DNA from: Granulicella sp.
GTDB taxonomy: Bacteria > Acidobacteriota > Terriglobia > Terriglobales > Acidobacteriaceae
Length of the DNA stretch: 64,000 bases
Assembly: GCA_027339965.1 (NCBI GenBank)
Contig: DAHWNL010000053.1
Span: 1-64,000, forward strand
Reading direction: 5' to 3'
Shown here: positions 981-7,557 of the stretch, one piece after another
Layout: each line of letters begins with the position of its first letter
Position numbering within the stretch: position 1 is the first letter of the stretch
Translations under genes and position numbers: made by a program
The notes under the pieces: generated by a model
The model's input: only the letters and a program-made list of their open reading frames with translations
Told to the model about the DNA's origin: nothing
The model's database searches: none

Positions 981-1289
981 CTAACGGGCTCTGAGAATGG
1001 CGGCCATCACGCGCGGATTGCGGCGGCCATGAAGAACGGCGACAACCCATAACGGCTTTTCAGCGGGCGCATACGCAATCAGGTATTCGCGTACCACAAG
1101 GAAGCGCAACGGCCGGGTAGTGAGGTCCAGGCGTCTGTGGCCCAGGGCGGGGAAAGAAGCCAGTTCACGAACAGCAGCCAAGATTTCCGCAATCACACGG
1201 TCGGCTGCATCAAGGTTATCGAGCGCGATGTATTCCCAAATCTCGTCAAGGTCTCGAAGGGCTTCCGGGTGAAAATCGTAACCCGTCAT
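981..1289 (-). CDS. ParE/RelE-family type II toxin
   Basis: 102 aa: FHPEALRDLDEIWEYIALDNLDAADRV...LASFPALGHRR...YLIAY...VVAVLHGRRN, the ParE pattern. Confidence 0.9.
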   Translation of the reverse strand: MTGYDFHPEALRDLDEIWEYIALDNLDAADRVIAEILAAVRELASFPALGHRRLDLTTRPLRFLVVREYLIAYAPAEKPLWVVAVLHGRRNPRVMAAILRAR

Positions 1290-1534
1290 TGGACGCGGCG
1301 GGCGGCGCTTTTTTGACGAAAATGGGCCTCCACCTCGTCGCCGGAGATAAGCTGCACCCTTCCGCTTTTCAGGTCGTCATAACGACTGTCGAGCATGACG
1401 CGCACCTGGGCGACTTCATCGAGGTATCCGGCCATCGCGTCCTCAACGAGGTCGTCAGCCCTGCGCCCGCTTTGCGTGGCAAGGGCGGTGAGCTTCTTTT
1501 CCGTTTCAGGAGTGAACTGCACTTCCATAGCCAT
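1286..1534 (-). CDS. Antitoxin (ParD/RHH-like) cognate to the ParE toxin
   Basis: Short gene overlapping the toxin start by 4 nt (ATGA); N-terminal RHH-like EVQFTPETEKKLTALATQSGR and C-terminal DDLKSGRVQLISGDEV. Confidence 0.8.
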   Translation of the reverse strand: MAMEVQFTPETEKKLTALATQSGRRADDLVEDAMAGYLDEVAQVRVMLDSRYDDLKSGRVQLISGDEVEAHFRQKSAARRVQ

Positions 1535-1597
1535 CAGCCTACGCCCAAGCCGGCTCCGGCTCAAGTCCTGAAAATTTCGGCGGTGCAGCGTGCTTGC

Positions 1598-1828
1598 TCA
1601 ACCCTTGCGTCCGAGGTGGCGCACGAACAGTTCCCGCGACAGCCGCTCGCCTTCTTCCGTCAGCACCACCGACTTGGCTTTGCTTTTCGGGTCAGAGATA
1701 TAGCCTCTGGTGTGCAGCCGGTCCAGCGCATCCCAGTCGTGCGACTTCCACGCACGGCCCTGGCCGGTCTGCGACAGCCACAACAGCGCCAGCACCATCT
1801 CGTCCACCTTGTCGCGGTCGTAGTCCAT
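1598..1828 (-). CDS. DUF6429-like small protein
   Basis: MDYDRDKVDEMVLALLWL...RAWKSHDWDALDRLH..GYISDPKSKAKSVVLTEEG matches the family signature as recalled. Confidence 0.75.
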   Translation of the reverse strand: MDYDRDKVDEMVLALLWLSQTGQGRAWKSHDWDALDRLHTRGYISDPKSKAKSVVLTEEGERLSRELFVRHLGRKG

Positions 1829-1878
1829 GACACCGGCTTCCTGCGCGGATATTACACCGGATCGCCGCCGTCGACCTA

Positions 1879-2707
1879 TGGCGTGTCATCAAACTGTGTA
1901 TATGCGTGAGTCTGTATCGCGTTTAAGTTGAAGTAGATGAGTACGCGGCGCTATGGATTGCGGGATGATCAGTGGGATCGGATCAAGGATTTGCTGCCCG
2001 GACGTGCGGGGAGCGAAGGTCGTCCGGCGCGGAATAACCGGTTGTTTGTGGAAGCCGTTCTGTACCGCTACCGGGCCGGGATCCCGTGGCGCGATCTTCC
2101 CGAGCGTTTCGGGGACTTCCGTGTGGTGCATACGCGTTTCAGCCGCTGGGCGCGTCGCGGCATCTGGCAGCAGGTGCTTGCCCATCTGGCCCAGGACGCG
2201 GATAACGAATACGCCATGATTGATTCGACCATCGTGCGCGCCCACCAGCACTCGGCTGGAGCGCGCAAAAAGTGGGCGAGCAAGCCCTCGGGCGCAGCCG
2301 CGGCGGTCTCGGCACGAAAATCCATGTAATGGTCGATGCGCTGGGTAATCCCACTGCACTGCACCTGACCGGCGGCCAATGCAGTGACGTGGAAGGCGCG
2401 GATGTGCTGCTGGAGCGGGTTGCGGCCAGAACCGTGATCGCCGACAAGGGCTACGACGCGGATACGCGCGTTTTCGACCGGCTGGAAAAAGCGGGGAAAA
2501 CTGCGGTAATCCCGCCGCGCACGCATCGCCGCGTGCCACGCGACTATGACCGCCATCTCTATAGATCTCGGCACCTGATTGAAAACTTCTTTGCTCACCT
2601 CAAGCAGTTCCGCGCCATCGCCACACGCTATGACAAAACTAAACAGAACTTCCTCGCCGCCGTCTACTTCGCCGCCGTGCTCATTTGGTTCGTTTGATGA
2701 CACTCCC
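1879..2707 (+). mobile_element. IS5-family element (IS427-like), apparently complete
   Basis: Terminal inverted repeats with a perfect 12-bp core GTGTCATCAAAC (1883-1894) / GTTTGATGACAC (2692-2703); TA on both flanks (1877-78, 2708-09). Confidence 0.9.
1937..2697 (+). CDS. IS5-family DDE transposase in two ORFs joined by a probable -1 frameshift
   Basis: orfA 1937-2329 (GIPWRDLPERFG, IDSTIVRAHQHSAG) and orfB 2272-2697 (GRSRGGLGTKIH, ADKGYD, RHLIENFF..LKQFR.IATRYDK) overlap in the -1 frame at AAAAAG 2267-2272. Confidence 0.88.
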
Positions 2708-3145
2708 TAGTCATGGGTAACATGAGAAAAAGACATTTTTCTCATAGCTGCAAAACAGCCGCAGCGAGGATGGCGGTCAAGGGCGGGCGTTCTTTGCCCG
2801 TCGCGTAGCGAGCGAAGCCCCTTGATGGTCACCGCAGCGGAGGCTACGTGGCCACAGCCGCGCCGGGATGCTAGTCCCAACCTCGATCTTTTGTTTTCAA
2901 TACGTTTACGCACGGCAACCCCGGAGTTGCCGCACAGGAGCCGCGAACCACGCATTTCTCAATTCGCTGCTTTCTTTTCAATAGGTTTACCTGCGTAAAC
3001 ACGTAAACGCCTGATTTTTGCCGATTATGTCGTGTATCTCATTGGCGCTGCTCACGTTCACCGCAGAGCAACCACAGGTTGCTCCACAGCAACCCGCCGG
3101 GGGTGAACCTATGAAAGCGCGACTTGCGCCTCATAGGAGAGCACC

Positions 3146-4189
3146 ATGCCAGCAGTGATCGGATGCGACGCCCCCAAGCAGTTCTCAGTCTTTGTGACCA
3201 TCGACAGCAAGGGCAAGACCTCGCCCGCTGTCCGGGTCGAGCATTACCGCCAGAAGTACATCGACTTTCTGCACACACTGCCGCCCGGCAGCGAGATCGC
3301 GCTTGAAGCCACTGGCCACTGGTACTGGATGGCGGATGAGATGGAGAAGGCCGGCCACCGTCCTCATCTGGCCAACCCGACAGAAGCCAAGAAGCGGATG
3401 GGCAAGACCAACAAGACCGACGCGCTCGACGCCAAAGGCCTCGCCATCCTGCTGCACAACGGGACGCTGCCGGAGAGCTGGATTCCGCCCGGCGAGCTGC
3501 GTGACCGCCGCGAGCTGCTGCGCACCCGCATGGCCTTGCGCGATCTGCGCTCGTCGCTCAAGCACCGCATCCATGCCTCCATCGACCGCTACGGCCTCCA
3601 GGCCACCGGCATCAGCGACCTATTCGGGGTCAAGGGCCGCGTCTACATCGACACGGTGCTCGATCGCCTCCCATGCGACACGGCGGCGATGATTCAGGTG
3701 CAGCTTACCTCCCTCGACCAACTCGAAGCACAGATCGAAGAGATTGAAGACCGCATCGCCGTCGCCCTCAAGCCCTCGCCAGAGGTGCGTTTGCTAAGAA
3801 CGATCCCCGGCGTAGGAGAGATCCTGGCACCACTCGTCTGGCTGGAGATCGGCGACATAGACCGCTTCCCCAGAGCTGAGAACCTGGCCGGTTATGCGGG
3901 GCTTGTACCCAGCATCTTTGCCAGCGGGGGACGCATCCGGCATGGAAGCACCTGCCGCAACATCAACCACTATCTCAAGTGGGGGTTCGTCGAAGCCGCC
4001 ACCTGCGCCATCCGGATCAAGGCCTATCGCGGCACCCATATCGAACGCCTTTATCAACGGCTTGCTCCCGCCAAAGGGCATGGACGAGCCATCGTCGCCG
4101 TCGCCCGACACCTCGCCGAAGCCAGCTATTGGGTGCTGCGCAAGGGCCAGCCCTACAAATCTCCAGGCCCCCGCACGGCGCAGGCATGA
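3146..4189 (+). CDS. IS110-family DEDD transposase/recombinase
   Basis: RuvC-like DEDD motifs (IGCD, LEATG, KTDALDA) and C-terminal TIPGVG...YAGLVPSIFASGG; GGAG SD upstream. Confidence 0.95.
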   Translation: MPAVIGCDAPKQFSVFVTIDSKGKTSPAVRVEHYRQKYIDFLHTLPPGSEIALEATGHWYWMADEMEKAGHRPHLANPTEAKKRMGKTNKTDALDAKGLAILLHNGTLPESWIPPGELRDRRELLRTRMALRDLRSSLKHRIHASIDRYGLQATGISDLFGVKGRVYIDTVLDRLPCDTAAMIQVQLTSLDQLEAQIEEIEDRIAVALKPSPEVRLLRTIPGVGEILAPLVWLEIGDIDRFPRAENLAGYAGLVPSIFASGGRIRHGSTCRNINHYLKWGFVEAATCAIRIKAYRGTHIERLYQRLAPAKGHGRAIVAVARHLAEASYWVLRKGQPYKSPGPRTAQA

Positions 4190-4470
4190 ACCGAGTTCGT
4201 CCAGTTCGGCTAAACGCGAGACACGTCTGACCAGCTACACAGGTCTCGGGGTGAATGCGGCAGCCGATTCAGCACAGGCTCATGCCGGAAGCCACGGCGA
4301 ATACATGGTTCACGACGAAACCATACAGCGAGCTGACCGAGGACGAAGGCCAACAACGACAGAAGGGAGAAGCAAGAAGACGATACCCCAACCAGCCGTG
4401 CCCACCACGGCCTCGCAAAACCGCGCGGCTAAGAGAAAAACAACAGAAAAAACAATTCCCTTGACAACAT
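4190..4470 (+). ncRNA. Putative bridge/seek RNA region of the IS1111-type element
   Basis: Stem TCGGCT(4206-11)/AGCCGA(4262-67) and inner stem GACC/GGTC enclose an internal loop. Its sides carry GACACGTC (4220-27) and GGGGTGA (4248-54), which match the two halves of the reconstructed target. Confidence 0.7.
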
Positions 4471-4597
4471 GCGCTTTCATATATGACGTGTCACCCTCCA
4501 TCCGCTGCCATAGGCAGCGCCCTTTTCAGAACTTCGGTGACGGCACATTTCTCGACTACCGAATGCCTCTAGCGACGGGCCGAATGAACCGTCGCAC

Positions 4598-4669
4598 ATG
4601 GAAACAGCCGCCCTGCTGGTCAGCATCGCCCAGCTCATCGTCGCCGTCATCGCACTCCGCCGCAAGTAG
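4598..4669 (+). CDS. 23-aa hydrophobic peptide, type I toxin-like
   Basis: METAALLVSIAQLIVAVIALRRK*: one TM helix with a basic tail; preceded by hairpin GCGACGG..CCGTCGC (4572-4595) and followed by hairpin CACAGGCC/GGCCTGTG (4702-4727). Confidence 0.5.
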   Translation: METAALLVSIAQLIVAVIALRRK

Positions 4670-4748
4670 CCAGGAGCATCAACCCGCCACCTCAGACGCA
4701 ACACAGGCCACCTCGCGGCGGCCTGTGGGACGGTTTCTAGGGCTACTC

Positions 4749-5111
4749 CTATGGACTGACTGCTAGGCCCGCCAAGTACCACGTGACAACAGCCAGCAGA
4801 CCGGCCCCCAGCAGGAGAAGCCGGGACAGACGCCTTCCGAAGAGCGCCAGAACTACAGCCAACACTCCCAAGCCGAGCATCCAGAACACAGGATAGAGGC
4901 GGTCAAGATCGACCGGCGTCGATCCGTGCGCAACTCGATAGGCGTGCAGCAAGAAGACGAGGAGCACCGCCGTGCTCACCGCGCATCCTGCTGCCCCGAG
5001 CAAGAACATCCACCTTCGCATGACGGTGAGGATTTGACCTTCTCCCCGGAAGCGCACGCCTGCCGCTACTAAAAGGACCAGGGATGCTATCGCCATCAGC
5101 ATTAGAAGCAT
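4749..5111 (-). CDS. Putative Rhs immunity protein (4 TM membrane protein)
   Basis: 120 aa hydrophobic ORF whose start overlaps the Rhs-CT stop, the canonical toxin-immunity position. Confidence 0.6.
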   Translation of the reverse strand: MLLMLMAIASLVLLVAAGVRFRGEGQILTVMRRWMFLLGAAGCAVSTAVLLVFLLHAYRVAHGSTPVDLDRLYPVFWMLGLGVLAVVLALFGRRLSRLLLLGAGLLAVVTWYLAGLAVSP

Positions 5112-6133
5112 GTTCCACCCGTCACAGCACAGTTCAGGTGGAGCGGGCCGGTTCCATTATCGATGTGGAAACGAGGAACCTCTGTGCCAGAACTGGGCAC
5201 CGGGAAGTGAGGAGAAGGTCCGTAGTCGAACAAGACCGGATGATCTCCTGTGCTATAGCGCATGTTGTGGTTGCCTTGATGATACGGGTTGAAATGGTCT
5301 TCGCCCGGATACGGCCATGGCCCATTACCTCCCGCCTTCATGCTGTTGAGCGTATCCATCATCCCCTGATGTCCACTGGGACCGTTGTAGGTAGCCTCGC
5401 CCGAATCGATGACGCCATATGCTATATCGTTGCTGTCGATATGGAACGTGAACTGATTCCAACCGGTCCCTTGTCCCTGGATGTCCGCAGCAGGAGTATT
5501 GGCTATGAATATCCCTTGGCCGGTTTGCTGGTTGGATGTTCCCGTACCGGTCGTGATCTGGACGCCACTTCCATTCACAACAGCCGTATTTCCGCTCCCT
5601 GCCTGGCTAAGCGAAGCACTCGTAACGACAGTTGCGCTGAACTTCCCATTTGAATCCGTTGTGCCGGACACAAGCTGCGAAACGTTGTTGCCATTAAAGT
5701 CTTTACCGATCACCTGAGAACCGCATGTAGCGGACTGCGTTTGGCACGACTGATAGAAGTGATGGCCGGTTGGATCAGTGCGCGAGAGCGGATTGTTTCC
5801 AACGTAGCTGTAAAGATTCAACGTCTGCGGGTCTTAAAGATGACCACCCACATCATCGGGACTCATAAAGCGTCCCATCGAACTCGCATAATAGCGTGGA
5901 CCGAAATCATCTAAGCCACTCTCGCTATCCCGTTCTTTGCCGGTATAAGGGGACTCGACGCGGTTCAAGAGCAAGCCTGCTCGCAAGCCTATTGCAACCG
6001 TAGAGTTAGCTTCATTGATACCCGGATTCAGTGCAGGATTTTTACTCGCGACCCCATGACGCGGTTTTTCGCTTAGCAGCACGTTTGCCGCTAGAAGACC
6101 GTCCGGGATGTGGGTGCCGGAAGAGATCTGCAT
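5102..6133 (-). pseudogene. Orphan Rhs core/C-terminal toxin with one in-frame TAA (5834-5836)
   Basis: YTGKERDSESGLDDFGPRYYASSMGRFMSPD..GGHL*DPQTLNLYSYVGNNPLSRTDPTG is the RHS-associated core ending in DPxG; the two listed ORFs are in the same frame. Confidence 0.9.
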
Positions 6134-6316
6134 GTTTGGCTCGATTGTACGGTTTTGAGGGGCACTTAGCCGAGGGCTTTAAGAGGTCGATTAGGCCGGG
6201 GATTCCGGCTCGATACGGGCCGCGATTCGGACCTCGATTCGCTGTGCTTTCCGCTGCGCATTTGCGGAGGTTTCAGCAGCGAAGAACGGCAGCTAAGAGA
6301 AGAACATTCCACCGGC

Positions 6317-6730
6317 TTAGAGCGAGACGATCTTGAGGCCGGGGATGAGCTGGAAGTGCTTCACGTTGAGCGTGGCTACATCAAAGCCGAGATGGAGGGC
6401 GGTGGCTCCGATGGCCAGGTCCTCAAAGGCGATGGCGATGCCCTGGGCGGCTTGTTCGCCTTCGATCTTTCCGGCAAGCTGCGCGATCTCAAGCGTAACC
6501 GGATGCACGACGATGTCCTGGAAGACGCCCTCGGCGAAGACGCGCCGACGCTCCCGGTCGGCGTCATTTCTGGCTCGGTAGATGCCGTGCGTCAGTTCGA
6601 CGACGCTCACCGTGGACAGCGCGATGTCGATCTCGCCATGCAAGGCGCGAACCCGGCGCAGGATGTCCTCGACGGACTCTCTACGGCGTTCGCTTGCGAT
6701 CAGGATGCCGGTGTCTAAGATCAGGCCCAC
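6317..6730 (-). CDS. vapC: VapC/PIN-domain toxin
   Basis: GTG start, MGLILDTGILI...VSVVEL..G...EDLAIGATAL...TLNVKHF..IPGL: PIN acidic residues present. Confidence 0.9.
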   Translation of the reverse strand: MGLILDTGILIASERRRESVEDILRRVRALHGEIDIALSTVSVVELTHGIYRARNDADRERRRVFAEGVFQDIVVHPVTLEIAQLAGKIEGEQAAQGIAIAFEDLAIGATALHLGFDVATLNVKHFQLIPGLKIVSL

Positions 6731-6734
6731 AGGA

Positions 6735-7025
6735 TCAGTCCCATGCGGAGGTGTCGCGCGGCTTGCGATTGCGGACGATCTCTTCCATGTCGGCGGCGAA
6801 CGCCTCATCCATGACCGGCTCATAGCCCAGCTCTTTCGAGCGGGCCTCGGCCAGCGCGATGGACTCGGAGATGGACCGGCGTGGCGGACCAGCAGCACGC
6901 AGCACGGCCACAGGCTGAACACCGGACTCGATGACGACCTCGGCCCCTGCCCGTACGCGGGCCATCAGCCCCGCGAAGTCGCGGGCCGCATCGGCTTCCG
7001 AGATGTGGATCACCGCCATATTCAC
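6735..7025 (-). CDS. Phd/YefM-like antitoxin
   Basis: IHISEADAARDFAGLMARVRAGAEVVIESGVQPVAVL is a Phd-type N-terminus; lies directly upstream of the PIN gene. Confidence 0.85.
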   Translation of the reverse strand: MNMAVIHISEADAARDFAGLMARVRAGAEVVIESGVQPVAVLRAAGPPRRSISESIALAEARSKELGYEPVMDEAFAADMEEIVRNRKPRDTSAWD

Positions 7026-7149
7026 GATGATACCTCCAGTTTTTCGCTTGGCTGCCGCCTTTCTCTAAAACTCTGTCCAGCAGTTTCTTCGCTCTGCGGG
7101 TCTTTTTTGCCGTGCAGGGACATATACGTCGGATGTATATCTGGCTCTC

Positions 7150-7557
7150 TTACCCGCCGTCGTCCTCATCCTCGGCCTCCAGAGCAGCGTGCAGGTCTTC
7201 CCGCTCGGCGGCGGAACGCTCCGCCGCTGTGGGCATGGCATGGGCCTCCGCCGCGTGCGTGGCCATCGTGTGGCGGAACAATTGACAGGCTCCGCTCTTG
7301 CCGAGCTGCGCCGCGTCGATCCGTTCCTTGACGGCATAGGTCAGATGATCGCGGCTGAACGGCTCGCCCCGGGGTCGTAAGGAACACCGTGAAGTCGTCC
7401 GGCTCGACGGCAAGCTATCGTAGAGCTTCAGCCGCACGATCTCCAGCCGCCGCATCCCGGTCGAGTACAGCATCTCCAGCAACGCGCGATCGCGCAAGCC
7501 GATCGGCTTCTCGATCTCGCACAGCACCGAAAAAGAGGGCCAGTTGAACTTTCGCAC
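7150..7557 (-). pseudogene. Tyrosine recombinase (XerC/D-like) remnant, 5'-truncated with two internal deletions
   Basis: GLRDRALLEMLYSTGMRRLEI..LKLYD (box I), out-of-frame LAVEPDDFTVFLT, and GACQLFRHTMAT (box II, HxxR degenerate); the GKG.K.R and LGH...T..Y segments are missing. Confidence 0.85.

Follow-up and report, generated by a model that had tools for sequence, protein, structure and literature searches.

An IS1111-group insertion element from Granulicella whose guide RNA is probably aimed at the nick region of MOBF origins of transfer

Seek or bridge RNAs in the right ends of IS1111 elements are established (PMC11187229; PMC11208160), and such an RNA has been predicted in 93% of IS1111s (PMC11208160). 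IS1111 ends have a 7-bp left and a 3-bp right extension outside sub-terminal repeats, a layout seen in ISEc11, ISKpn4, ISPst6 and ISPa11, where the 3' non-coding region holds a top-strand guide lying 5' of the bottom-strand guide and where natural reprogramming among relatives has been described (PMC11187229). In IS621, an IS110 element that has a DEDD plus serine recombinase, the bridge RNA has one loop for the target and another for the donor, and its left and right guides overlap at a short core (PMC11208160). IS110/IS1111 elements are known to target other mobile elements, as exemplified by the IS1111-attC group and by ISEc21, which sits at the catalytic codons of IS3 (PMC11187229; PMC11208160). 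What is hit is a conserved functional site of the other element, and this holds more widely. IS4321 and IS5075 aim at the terminal repeats of Tn21, and the unrelated IS1202 group at dif/pdif sites.

The other known system that matters here is the MOBF origin of transfer (oriT) of F and R388, in which nine bases separate a hairpin from the nick (PMC3074121; PMC4176350; PMC3264647). In F, the hairpin is followed by GTGGGGTGT and then GGTGC (oligonucleotide table of PMC3074121), and R388 needs the proximal hairpin arm plus the nine bases up to the nick, bases 12-25 being essential (PMC4176350). In both plasmids, the oriT belongs to a cassette with a T4CP and a TrwC-family relaxase. The order in R388 is oriT-accessory-T4CP-relaxase.

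The element described here lies in a 64,000-nucleotide stretch of a Granulicella sp. contig (hereafter the window), and the reading that we hold to be highly probable is that of an IS1111-group insertion sequence with flank-matching, covarying 3' guides, the likely target of which is the nick region of a MOBF oriT that insertion is predicted to break. Like the attC group, ISEc21, IS4321/IS5075 and the IS1202 group, it would thus hit a conserved functional site of another mobile element, but this site is a predicted relaxase nick region, and it is approached by two lineages on opposite strands.

On every structural feature that could be tested, window positions 3104-4483 are an IS1111-group insertion element (Table 1). 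The original prediction had placed an element at 3101..4496; there is one, and its span is now corrected to 1380 bp by the 7-bp/3-bp extension rule, the first T being uncertain by one base. The sub-terminal inverted repeats are perfect over 10 bp and conserved among homologues, and there is no target duplication at the ends, the left TGA being present in 72/73 cases and right positions 1-3 being variable. The recombinase combines a DEDD RuvC-like domain with a PF02371 domain bearing the conserved serine, which is what defines the IS110 family; it scores 219 bits against NF033542 (cut-off 140), matches PF01548 and PF02371 as well, and is matched by structure PDB 8wt6 (E 3e-16). As far as its reading frame is concerned, the earlier description of this protein as intact was right, since the frame is open with all catalytic residues. 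Non-coding DNA amounts to 294 nt 3' of the gene and 42 nt 5' of it, which fits the IS1111 layout. In pairwise comparison, the transposase aligns over its full length with that of ISEc11 at 26.5% identity (E 3e-13), the match to ISEc21 (E 0.035) not being significant. Compared with the ISEc11 group (PMC11187229), the protein is distant, the repeats are 10 bp long instead of the usual 11-13, the target is MOBF oriT-like where that group uses attC, REP or a short linear site, and the element has a donor-reading loop that can be placed by covariation. In contrast to IS621 (PMC11208160), the RNA is 3' of the gene, its guides come in the opposite order, and the core, CT in IS621, is no longer than TG.

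Table 1. Features of the element and of its landing site, in window positions.
Feature	Position	Strand	Basis or remark
Left target part: palindromic boxes GCAACC (3068-3073) / GGTTGC (3077-3082) and CAGCAACCC box	3068..3095	+	56/73 occupied left flanks, also empty sites
Short hairpin CCC-GCC-GGG and left target half GGGG (3100-3103)	3093..3103	+	Matches conserved CCCT-N3-AGGG of the 27-site profile
Left terminal extension TGAACCT, 7 bp; right half of donor junction	3104..3110	+	TGA starts 72/73 left junctions
Left sub-terminal inverted repeat ATGAAAGCGC	3111..3120	+	Pairs with 4471-4480
IS110-family DEDD recombinase, 347 aa, open frame; D8, E54, D92, D95 and serine S260 in GL-P----SG	3146..4189	+	NF033542, PF01548, PF02371
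Predicted bridge/seek RNA core, closing stem 4196-4201 / 4314-4319	4196..4319	+	Covarying fold
Right target guide GACACGTC, complementary to top strand 4485-4492; 4228 mismatches target T	4220..4227	+	Flank covariation
Left target guide GGGGTGA, same as top strand 3100-3106	4248..4254	+	Flank covariation
Probable right donor guide AGGCTCAT, 7/8 to donor junction; only TCAT firmly conserved	4276..4283	+	Weak covariation
Left donor guide ATACATG, 6/7 to the copy's donor end, mismatch at 4482	4301..4307	+	Covariation
TTGACA, candidate -35 box of circle-junction promoter; good -10 not evident in this copy	4461..4466	+	
Right sub-terminal inverted repeat GCGCTTTCAT (4471-4480) and 3-bp right extension (4481-4483)	4471..4483	+	
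Right target half TGACGTGTC; predicted MOBF nick 4491/4492, by analogy with F	4484..4492	+	Conservation 0.65 bits right after the 9-mer
Hairpin 3' of predicted nick, CGCTGCC-ATA-GGCAGCG	4503..4519	+	67/86 occupied right flanks, also empty sites

The central claim made for this DNA at the outset, that two segments of the 3' RNA match the two halves of the target, is supported by covariation among homologues. All of the motifs concerned are where they had been placed, including GACACGTC at 4220-4227, GGGGTGA at 4248-4254 and GACGTGTC from 4485, as are TGAACC at 3104-3109 and 4187-4192 and GGTTCA at 4307-4312; when the 281-nt non-coding region was resampled 100,000 times (first-order, a post hoc test), 7 of the resampled sequences contained both guide words. 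Homologues were sampled from 55 genome loci (labelled mostly Acidobacteria), the best 80 of 294 metagenome loci and further loci, and a search of 251 genomes around G305 yielded no further relatives. Each distinct guide was represented once; the 5' guide, as its reverse complement, was compared with the right flank (three registers being allowed, for observed and shuffled pairings alike), and loci without a parsed loop or flank were dropped. The right guide agreed with its flank at 112 of 144 positions over 18 guide classes (shuffled mean 63.4, maximum 92), 6 of these classes coming from a single clade and two classes (L033, L216) matching at just 4/8, and the left guide at 31 of 36 over nine classes (shuffled mean 12.4, maximum 28); neither score was reached in 20,000 shuffles. 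Among 86 non-redundant right flanks of the window's clade, 58 match exactly, 13 with one mismatch, 12 with two and 3 with three or more, and GGGG ends 63/73 left flanks. Guides that read G at target position 3 are found at G sites in 7/19 cases versus 4/67, although these rows are not independent. The order of the guides, top-strand before bottom-strand, is that of the IS1111 group, and the left guide, being identical to the top strand, therefore pairs with the bottom strand. As regards the suggestion that the element may be reprogrammable, homologues do show natural reprogramming, and the reconstructed empty target does occur uninterrupted in other genomes. A separate set of loci (L211-L225, relatives of L034 at 52-54% identity) has palindromic targets with a 6-bp spacer, CCGATAA-N6-TTATCGG, and a right guide that differs almost from copy to copy, with four versions within one genome; this guide follows the spacer in L212, L213, L220 and L225, and poorly in L219 and L224. 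These targets resemble dif/Xer-type sites.

Folded as a single sequence, the 3' non-coding region is not exceptional (z 0.68 for 4170-4490, -1.18 for 4194-4322), and Rfam returned one chance match and no family for the RNA at 4196-4319. Support for a fold comes from an alignment of 31 homologues (the window plus 30 of 40 candidates, picked for diversity), in which a five-helix model leaves 90.7% of cells paired, with compensatory changes in 15 of 23 pairs, against 32-39% paired in a control with the partners slid. RNAalifold unaided gave four of these helices, and the inner stem was added as originally proposed (GACC 4229-4232 / GGTC 4242-4245); this stem has compensatory changes in 4/4 pairs and is 76% paired, and the outer stem proposed with it (TCGGCT 4206-4211 / AGCCGA 4262-4267) has them in 6/6. 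An invariant stem, CGCG 4215-4218 / TGCG 4256-4259, had been overlooked, as had the closing stem and the sub-terminal repeats. In order, the target loop consists of this invariant stem, the right guide, a variable hairpin and the left guide, and a second unit at 4276-4307 has the same layout (4276-4283, hairpin, 4301-4307).

Two details of the original prediction had to be revised. The first is a GA core shared by the two guides, since the third base of the right junction varies (A 72, G 11, T 2, C 1; n=86). Because 72/73 left junctions are TGA while this base varies, its A is assigned to the element end, and more distant members have targets TGG or TGC with a left guide still ending in TGA. 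At the 86 non-redundant right junctions, position 1 is T in 77, A in 8 and G in 1, and position 2 is G in 85 and A in 1, so that no more than TG can be a shared core. A one-base G core was ruled out, as right position 2 also tracks the target (L129, L211). The eight junctions that start with A (L009, L010, L011, L069, L078, L080, L083, L088) belong to one clade, and in all of them this A pairs perfectly with the right guide; the elements in L009 and L076 are identical and differ at right position 1, and no A-first site was found among 26 oriT-like empty sites, all of which have T. The second detail is GGTTCA (4307-4312) as a donor guide, which is now disfavoured: it matches 6/6 in just 1/71 rows, and at least 4/6 donor matches are reached in 46/71 rows versus 62/71 for 4276-4283, the median being 4 for both. 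The left donor guide at 4301-4307 matches the donor left half 7/7 in 63 of 91 rows, 6/7 in 27 and 5/7 in one, and when classes are shuffled (four donor types plus the window's) the observed 25/30, against a mean of 18.4, is reached by 70 of 20,000. The right donor guide is probably at 4276-4283, on account of symmetry with the target loop and a near-invariant TCAT; it matches 7/7 in L034, but covaries weakly.

What the guides are aimed at emerges from the sites that are free of the element. A search of 151 genomes of the family with the target pattern found 27 uninterrupted sites in 19 genomes and none with a reversed control; 26 of these look genuine and one is a chance match. Among the 16 for which wider regions were available (97/224 frames scanned), the site is accompanied by complete TrwB and TrwC genes in two and by a broken pair in one; L193 and L204 are loci with TrwB and TrwC (PF10412, PF08751), and NikA-like Pfam matches of 22 and 24 bits stayed under the 27-bit cut-off. 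Anchoring on the RHH gene, which gave 55 matches in 27/151 genomes, 30 loci were taken and the gene was re-located in 27 (3 not located): in 27/27, the motif lies some 80-240 bp upstream on the opposite strand, with 21 exact to the degenerate motif, five with one mismatch and one with two, for chance rates per 700 nt of 0.0015 (up to one mismatch) and 0.025 (up to two), and a T4CP gene is nearby at 23/27. It was once this search had placed the motif that a LexA-like operator, a type I toxin promoter and the end of a XerC element were dropped as candidate targets. The motif is also found, with one mismatch, upstream of the RHH-T4CP-MobF cassette in 4/4 Acidobacteria MOBF plasmids (pACIX903, pACIX904, pACIX905 and pACPOL1, the Acidobacteria ones among eight MOBF matches), and a TrwC-anchored sample of the phylum (8/9 places) has it exact in three loci, with two mismatches in one and absent from four.

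Homologous sites are thus positioned as a MOBF oriT, with accessory gene, T4CP and TrwC-family relaxase adjoining, and their profile has the same parts as F and R388: a hairpin, CCCT-N3-AGGG, then nine bases ending in GTGT, then C, after which conservation collapses. L268 bears the F 9-mer exactly, and in L196 and L193 the predicted leading side holds ArdC and SSB genes. The Acidobacteria motif departs from the F and R388 oriT in that its hairpin is shorter (3-4 bp), another conserved hairpin follows on the 3' side of the predicted nick, and orphan copies are numerous. Taken together, and by analogy with F, we infer that the target would be a MOBF oriT with its nick at window 4491/4492; the palindromic boxes at 3068-3095 are likely sites for an RHH accessory protein. 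The RHH gene is kept in 14 of 58 occupied left flanks, one of them marginal, and 44/58 have none within 900 bp. RHH-anchored sites are mostly of a GGAG variant (G 22/27, A 23/27), two mismatches away from the window's guide, and sites of this type make up 5/86 of those occupied, which suggests that the element mostly strikes a subtype together with orphan origins.

The window's own site fits the latter description. Its genome, which is 98.86% complete, has no TrwC, T4CP or RHH match, and the exact empty target is absent from it (0 copies; 3 with one mismatch, 57 with up to two), two target matches within the window being at chance level. The site is presumably an orphan oriT in a decayed island, which extends over 981-7557, next to rimP, and holds a ParE pair, a DUF6429 gene, an IS5-type element, an Rhs C-terminus with a likely immunity gene, a PIN-domain pair and an integrase remnant. 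A short hydrophobic frame at 4599-4670 (some 23 codons, no Pfam match) could, as a guess, encode a small membrane toxin, and a GC-rich repeat at 2710-2870, with many loose ends in metagenome contigs, is similar to a segment inserted within the right end of L009-L011. Orphan oriT-like sites (L166-L192 and window 4749-6133) are often found beside Rhs-type toxin/immunity cassettes, with one cluster of eight loci, and such islands might be mobilised in trans. Where an empty oriT-like site has its core G changed to C (L145:6946-6960, G000 C12), homology ends right past GTGTC and the sequence continues within a reversed Rhs gene, a break of the kind that nick-site recombination would give; a degenerate oriT-like site (L146:7057-7165, G000 C28) lies upstream of an unrelated gene.

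A second lineage of the element (65% identity, other repeats; L027/L130/L158, L116 and L135) has guides directed to the other strand of the same oriT; its insertions, at three distinct sites, lie 2 nt past the predicted nick on the 3' side, 10 bp further on. In L116 this leaves the whole hairpin, the nine bases and the predicted nick intact, and one locus has both lineages in the same oriT, 10-11 bp apart.

From established IS1111 biology, the element would excise as a circle and its RNA would bind the recombinase; the 5' guide would pair with the top strand, the 3' guide would pair with the bottom one, and the second loop (4276-4283, hairpin, 4301-4307) would read the donor junction. A promoter search of the linear element found none, and no circle or empty-site joint was seen in contigs of 4 of 22 runs, a type of contig that cannot show absence; in L216, the element's own left-end sequence directly follows the right end, a circle-type junction in a tandem copy. 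Insertion, GGGG^TGACGTGTC, would fall between bases 1 and 2 of the nine that follow the oriT hairpin, with the predicted nick 8 nt farther 3', moving the hairpin arm and the RHH boxes 1.38 kb away from the nick; with the proximal arm removed, transfer would, by analogy with R388, be abolished. The element's likely gain would be a conserved, multi-copy, dispensable landing pad that is resupplied by incoming conjugative elements, and such a resupplied safe pad is the most economical reading. A strong anti-transfer role is weakened because most RHH-anchored origins are of the seldom-occupied GGAG variant.

It is quite possible, though we lean against it, that the family is as described and that the window's copy is a dormant relic. 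In favour of this are one intact copy alongside one paralogue in the same genome (contig C60) that is 82.7% identical and frameshifted, with identical target guides and with flanks that differ from the window's yet carry the same target, as well as the donor-guide mismatch at 4482, the unclear junction -10 and the missing exact empty target; set against this, the frame is open, no catalytic residue is missing, and both the 10-bp repeats and the target guides are perfect, and low copy number could also follow from the lack of free perfect targets in the genome. We consider it unlikely that the nick is usable at the right junction, so that the element rides along with conjugative transfer instead of blocking it. 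The right junction does keep 8/9 bases and the predicted nick, R388 bases 27-32 are free (PMC4176350), an R388 14+3 oriT still recombines (PMC3264647), and in L116 nothing of the hairpin, nine bases and nick is lost; but in the window's lineage the proximal hairpin arm is removed, and R388 bases 12-25 are essential (PMC4176350). Such a ride fits the opposite-strand lineage best; with its insertion 3' of the predicted nick, this lineage would be first into the recipient. In G901, trwC is frameshifted in both occupied cassettes, and in an empty one too. Finally, that the guides are real and the target is some other conserved element upstream of a mobilisation operon (operator, promoter or replication signal) is very improbable, for although 4/8 TrwC-anchored loci lack the motif and 15/27 pattern matches have no RHH within 900 bp, the hairpin and nine bases ending in GTGT are on the strand and side expected of MOBF, conservation drops sharply after them, L268 has the exact F 9-mer, and the C12 site breaks just past GTGTC, into the middle of an Rhs gene.

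As for what is new, that the guide loop of an IS1111 element can be read is already known, and the new part is the class of target, which appears unreported. In the open-licence literature, no IS110/IS1111 element aimed at an oriT was found; oriT is mentioned only as a plasmid part in the available portion of one preprint (10.64898/2026.03.19.712850), and the 3 of 15 'oriT' matches inspected in the supplements of PMC11208160 were all fragments of other words.

With the guide mechanism itself being established, one more readable IS1111 RNA has modest value. An IS1111 clade whose target guides and left donor guide have been mapped by natural covariation is, on the other hand, a good scaffold for reprogramming tests, and the analysis predicts an oriT and a nick for Acidobacteria MOBF plasmids, which is useful in a phylum where genetic tools are few. 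If the target of these elements is indeed the MOBF nick site, they would be natural RNA-guided recombinases aimed at the start of conjugative transfer, which raises the question of whether they block or exploit it. The boldest answer, which we regard as distinctly unlikely, is that the clade parasitises oriT in two ways – one lineage splitting the nick region and switching transfer off until excision, the other inserting past the nick and being delivered first – and that guide and oriT variants chase each other in an RNA-guided conflict over horizontal transfer.
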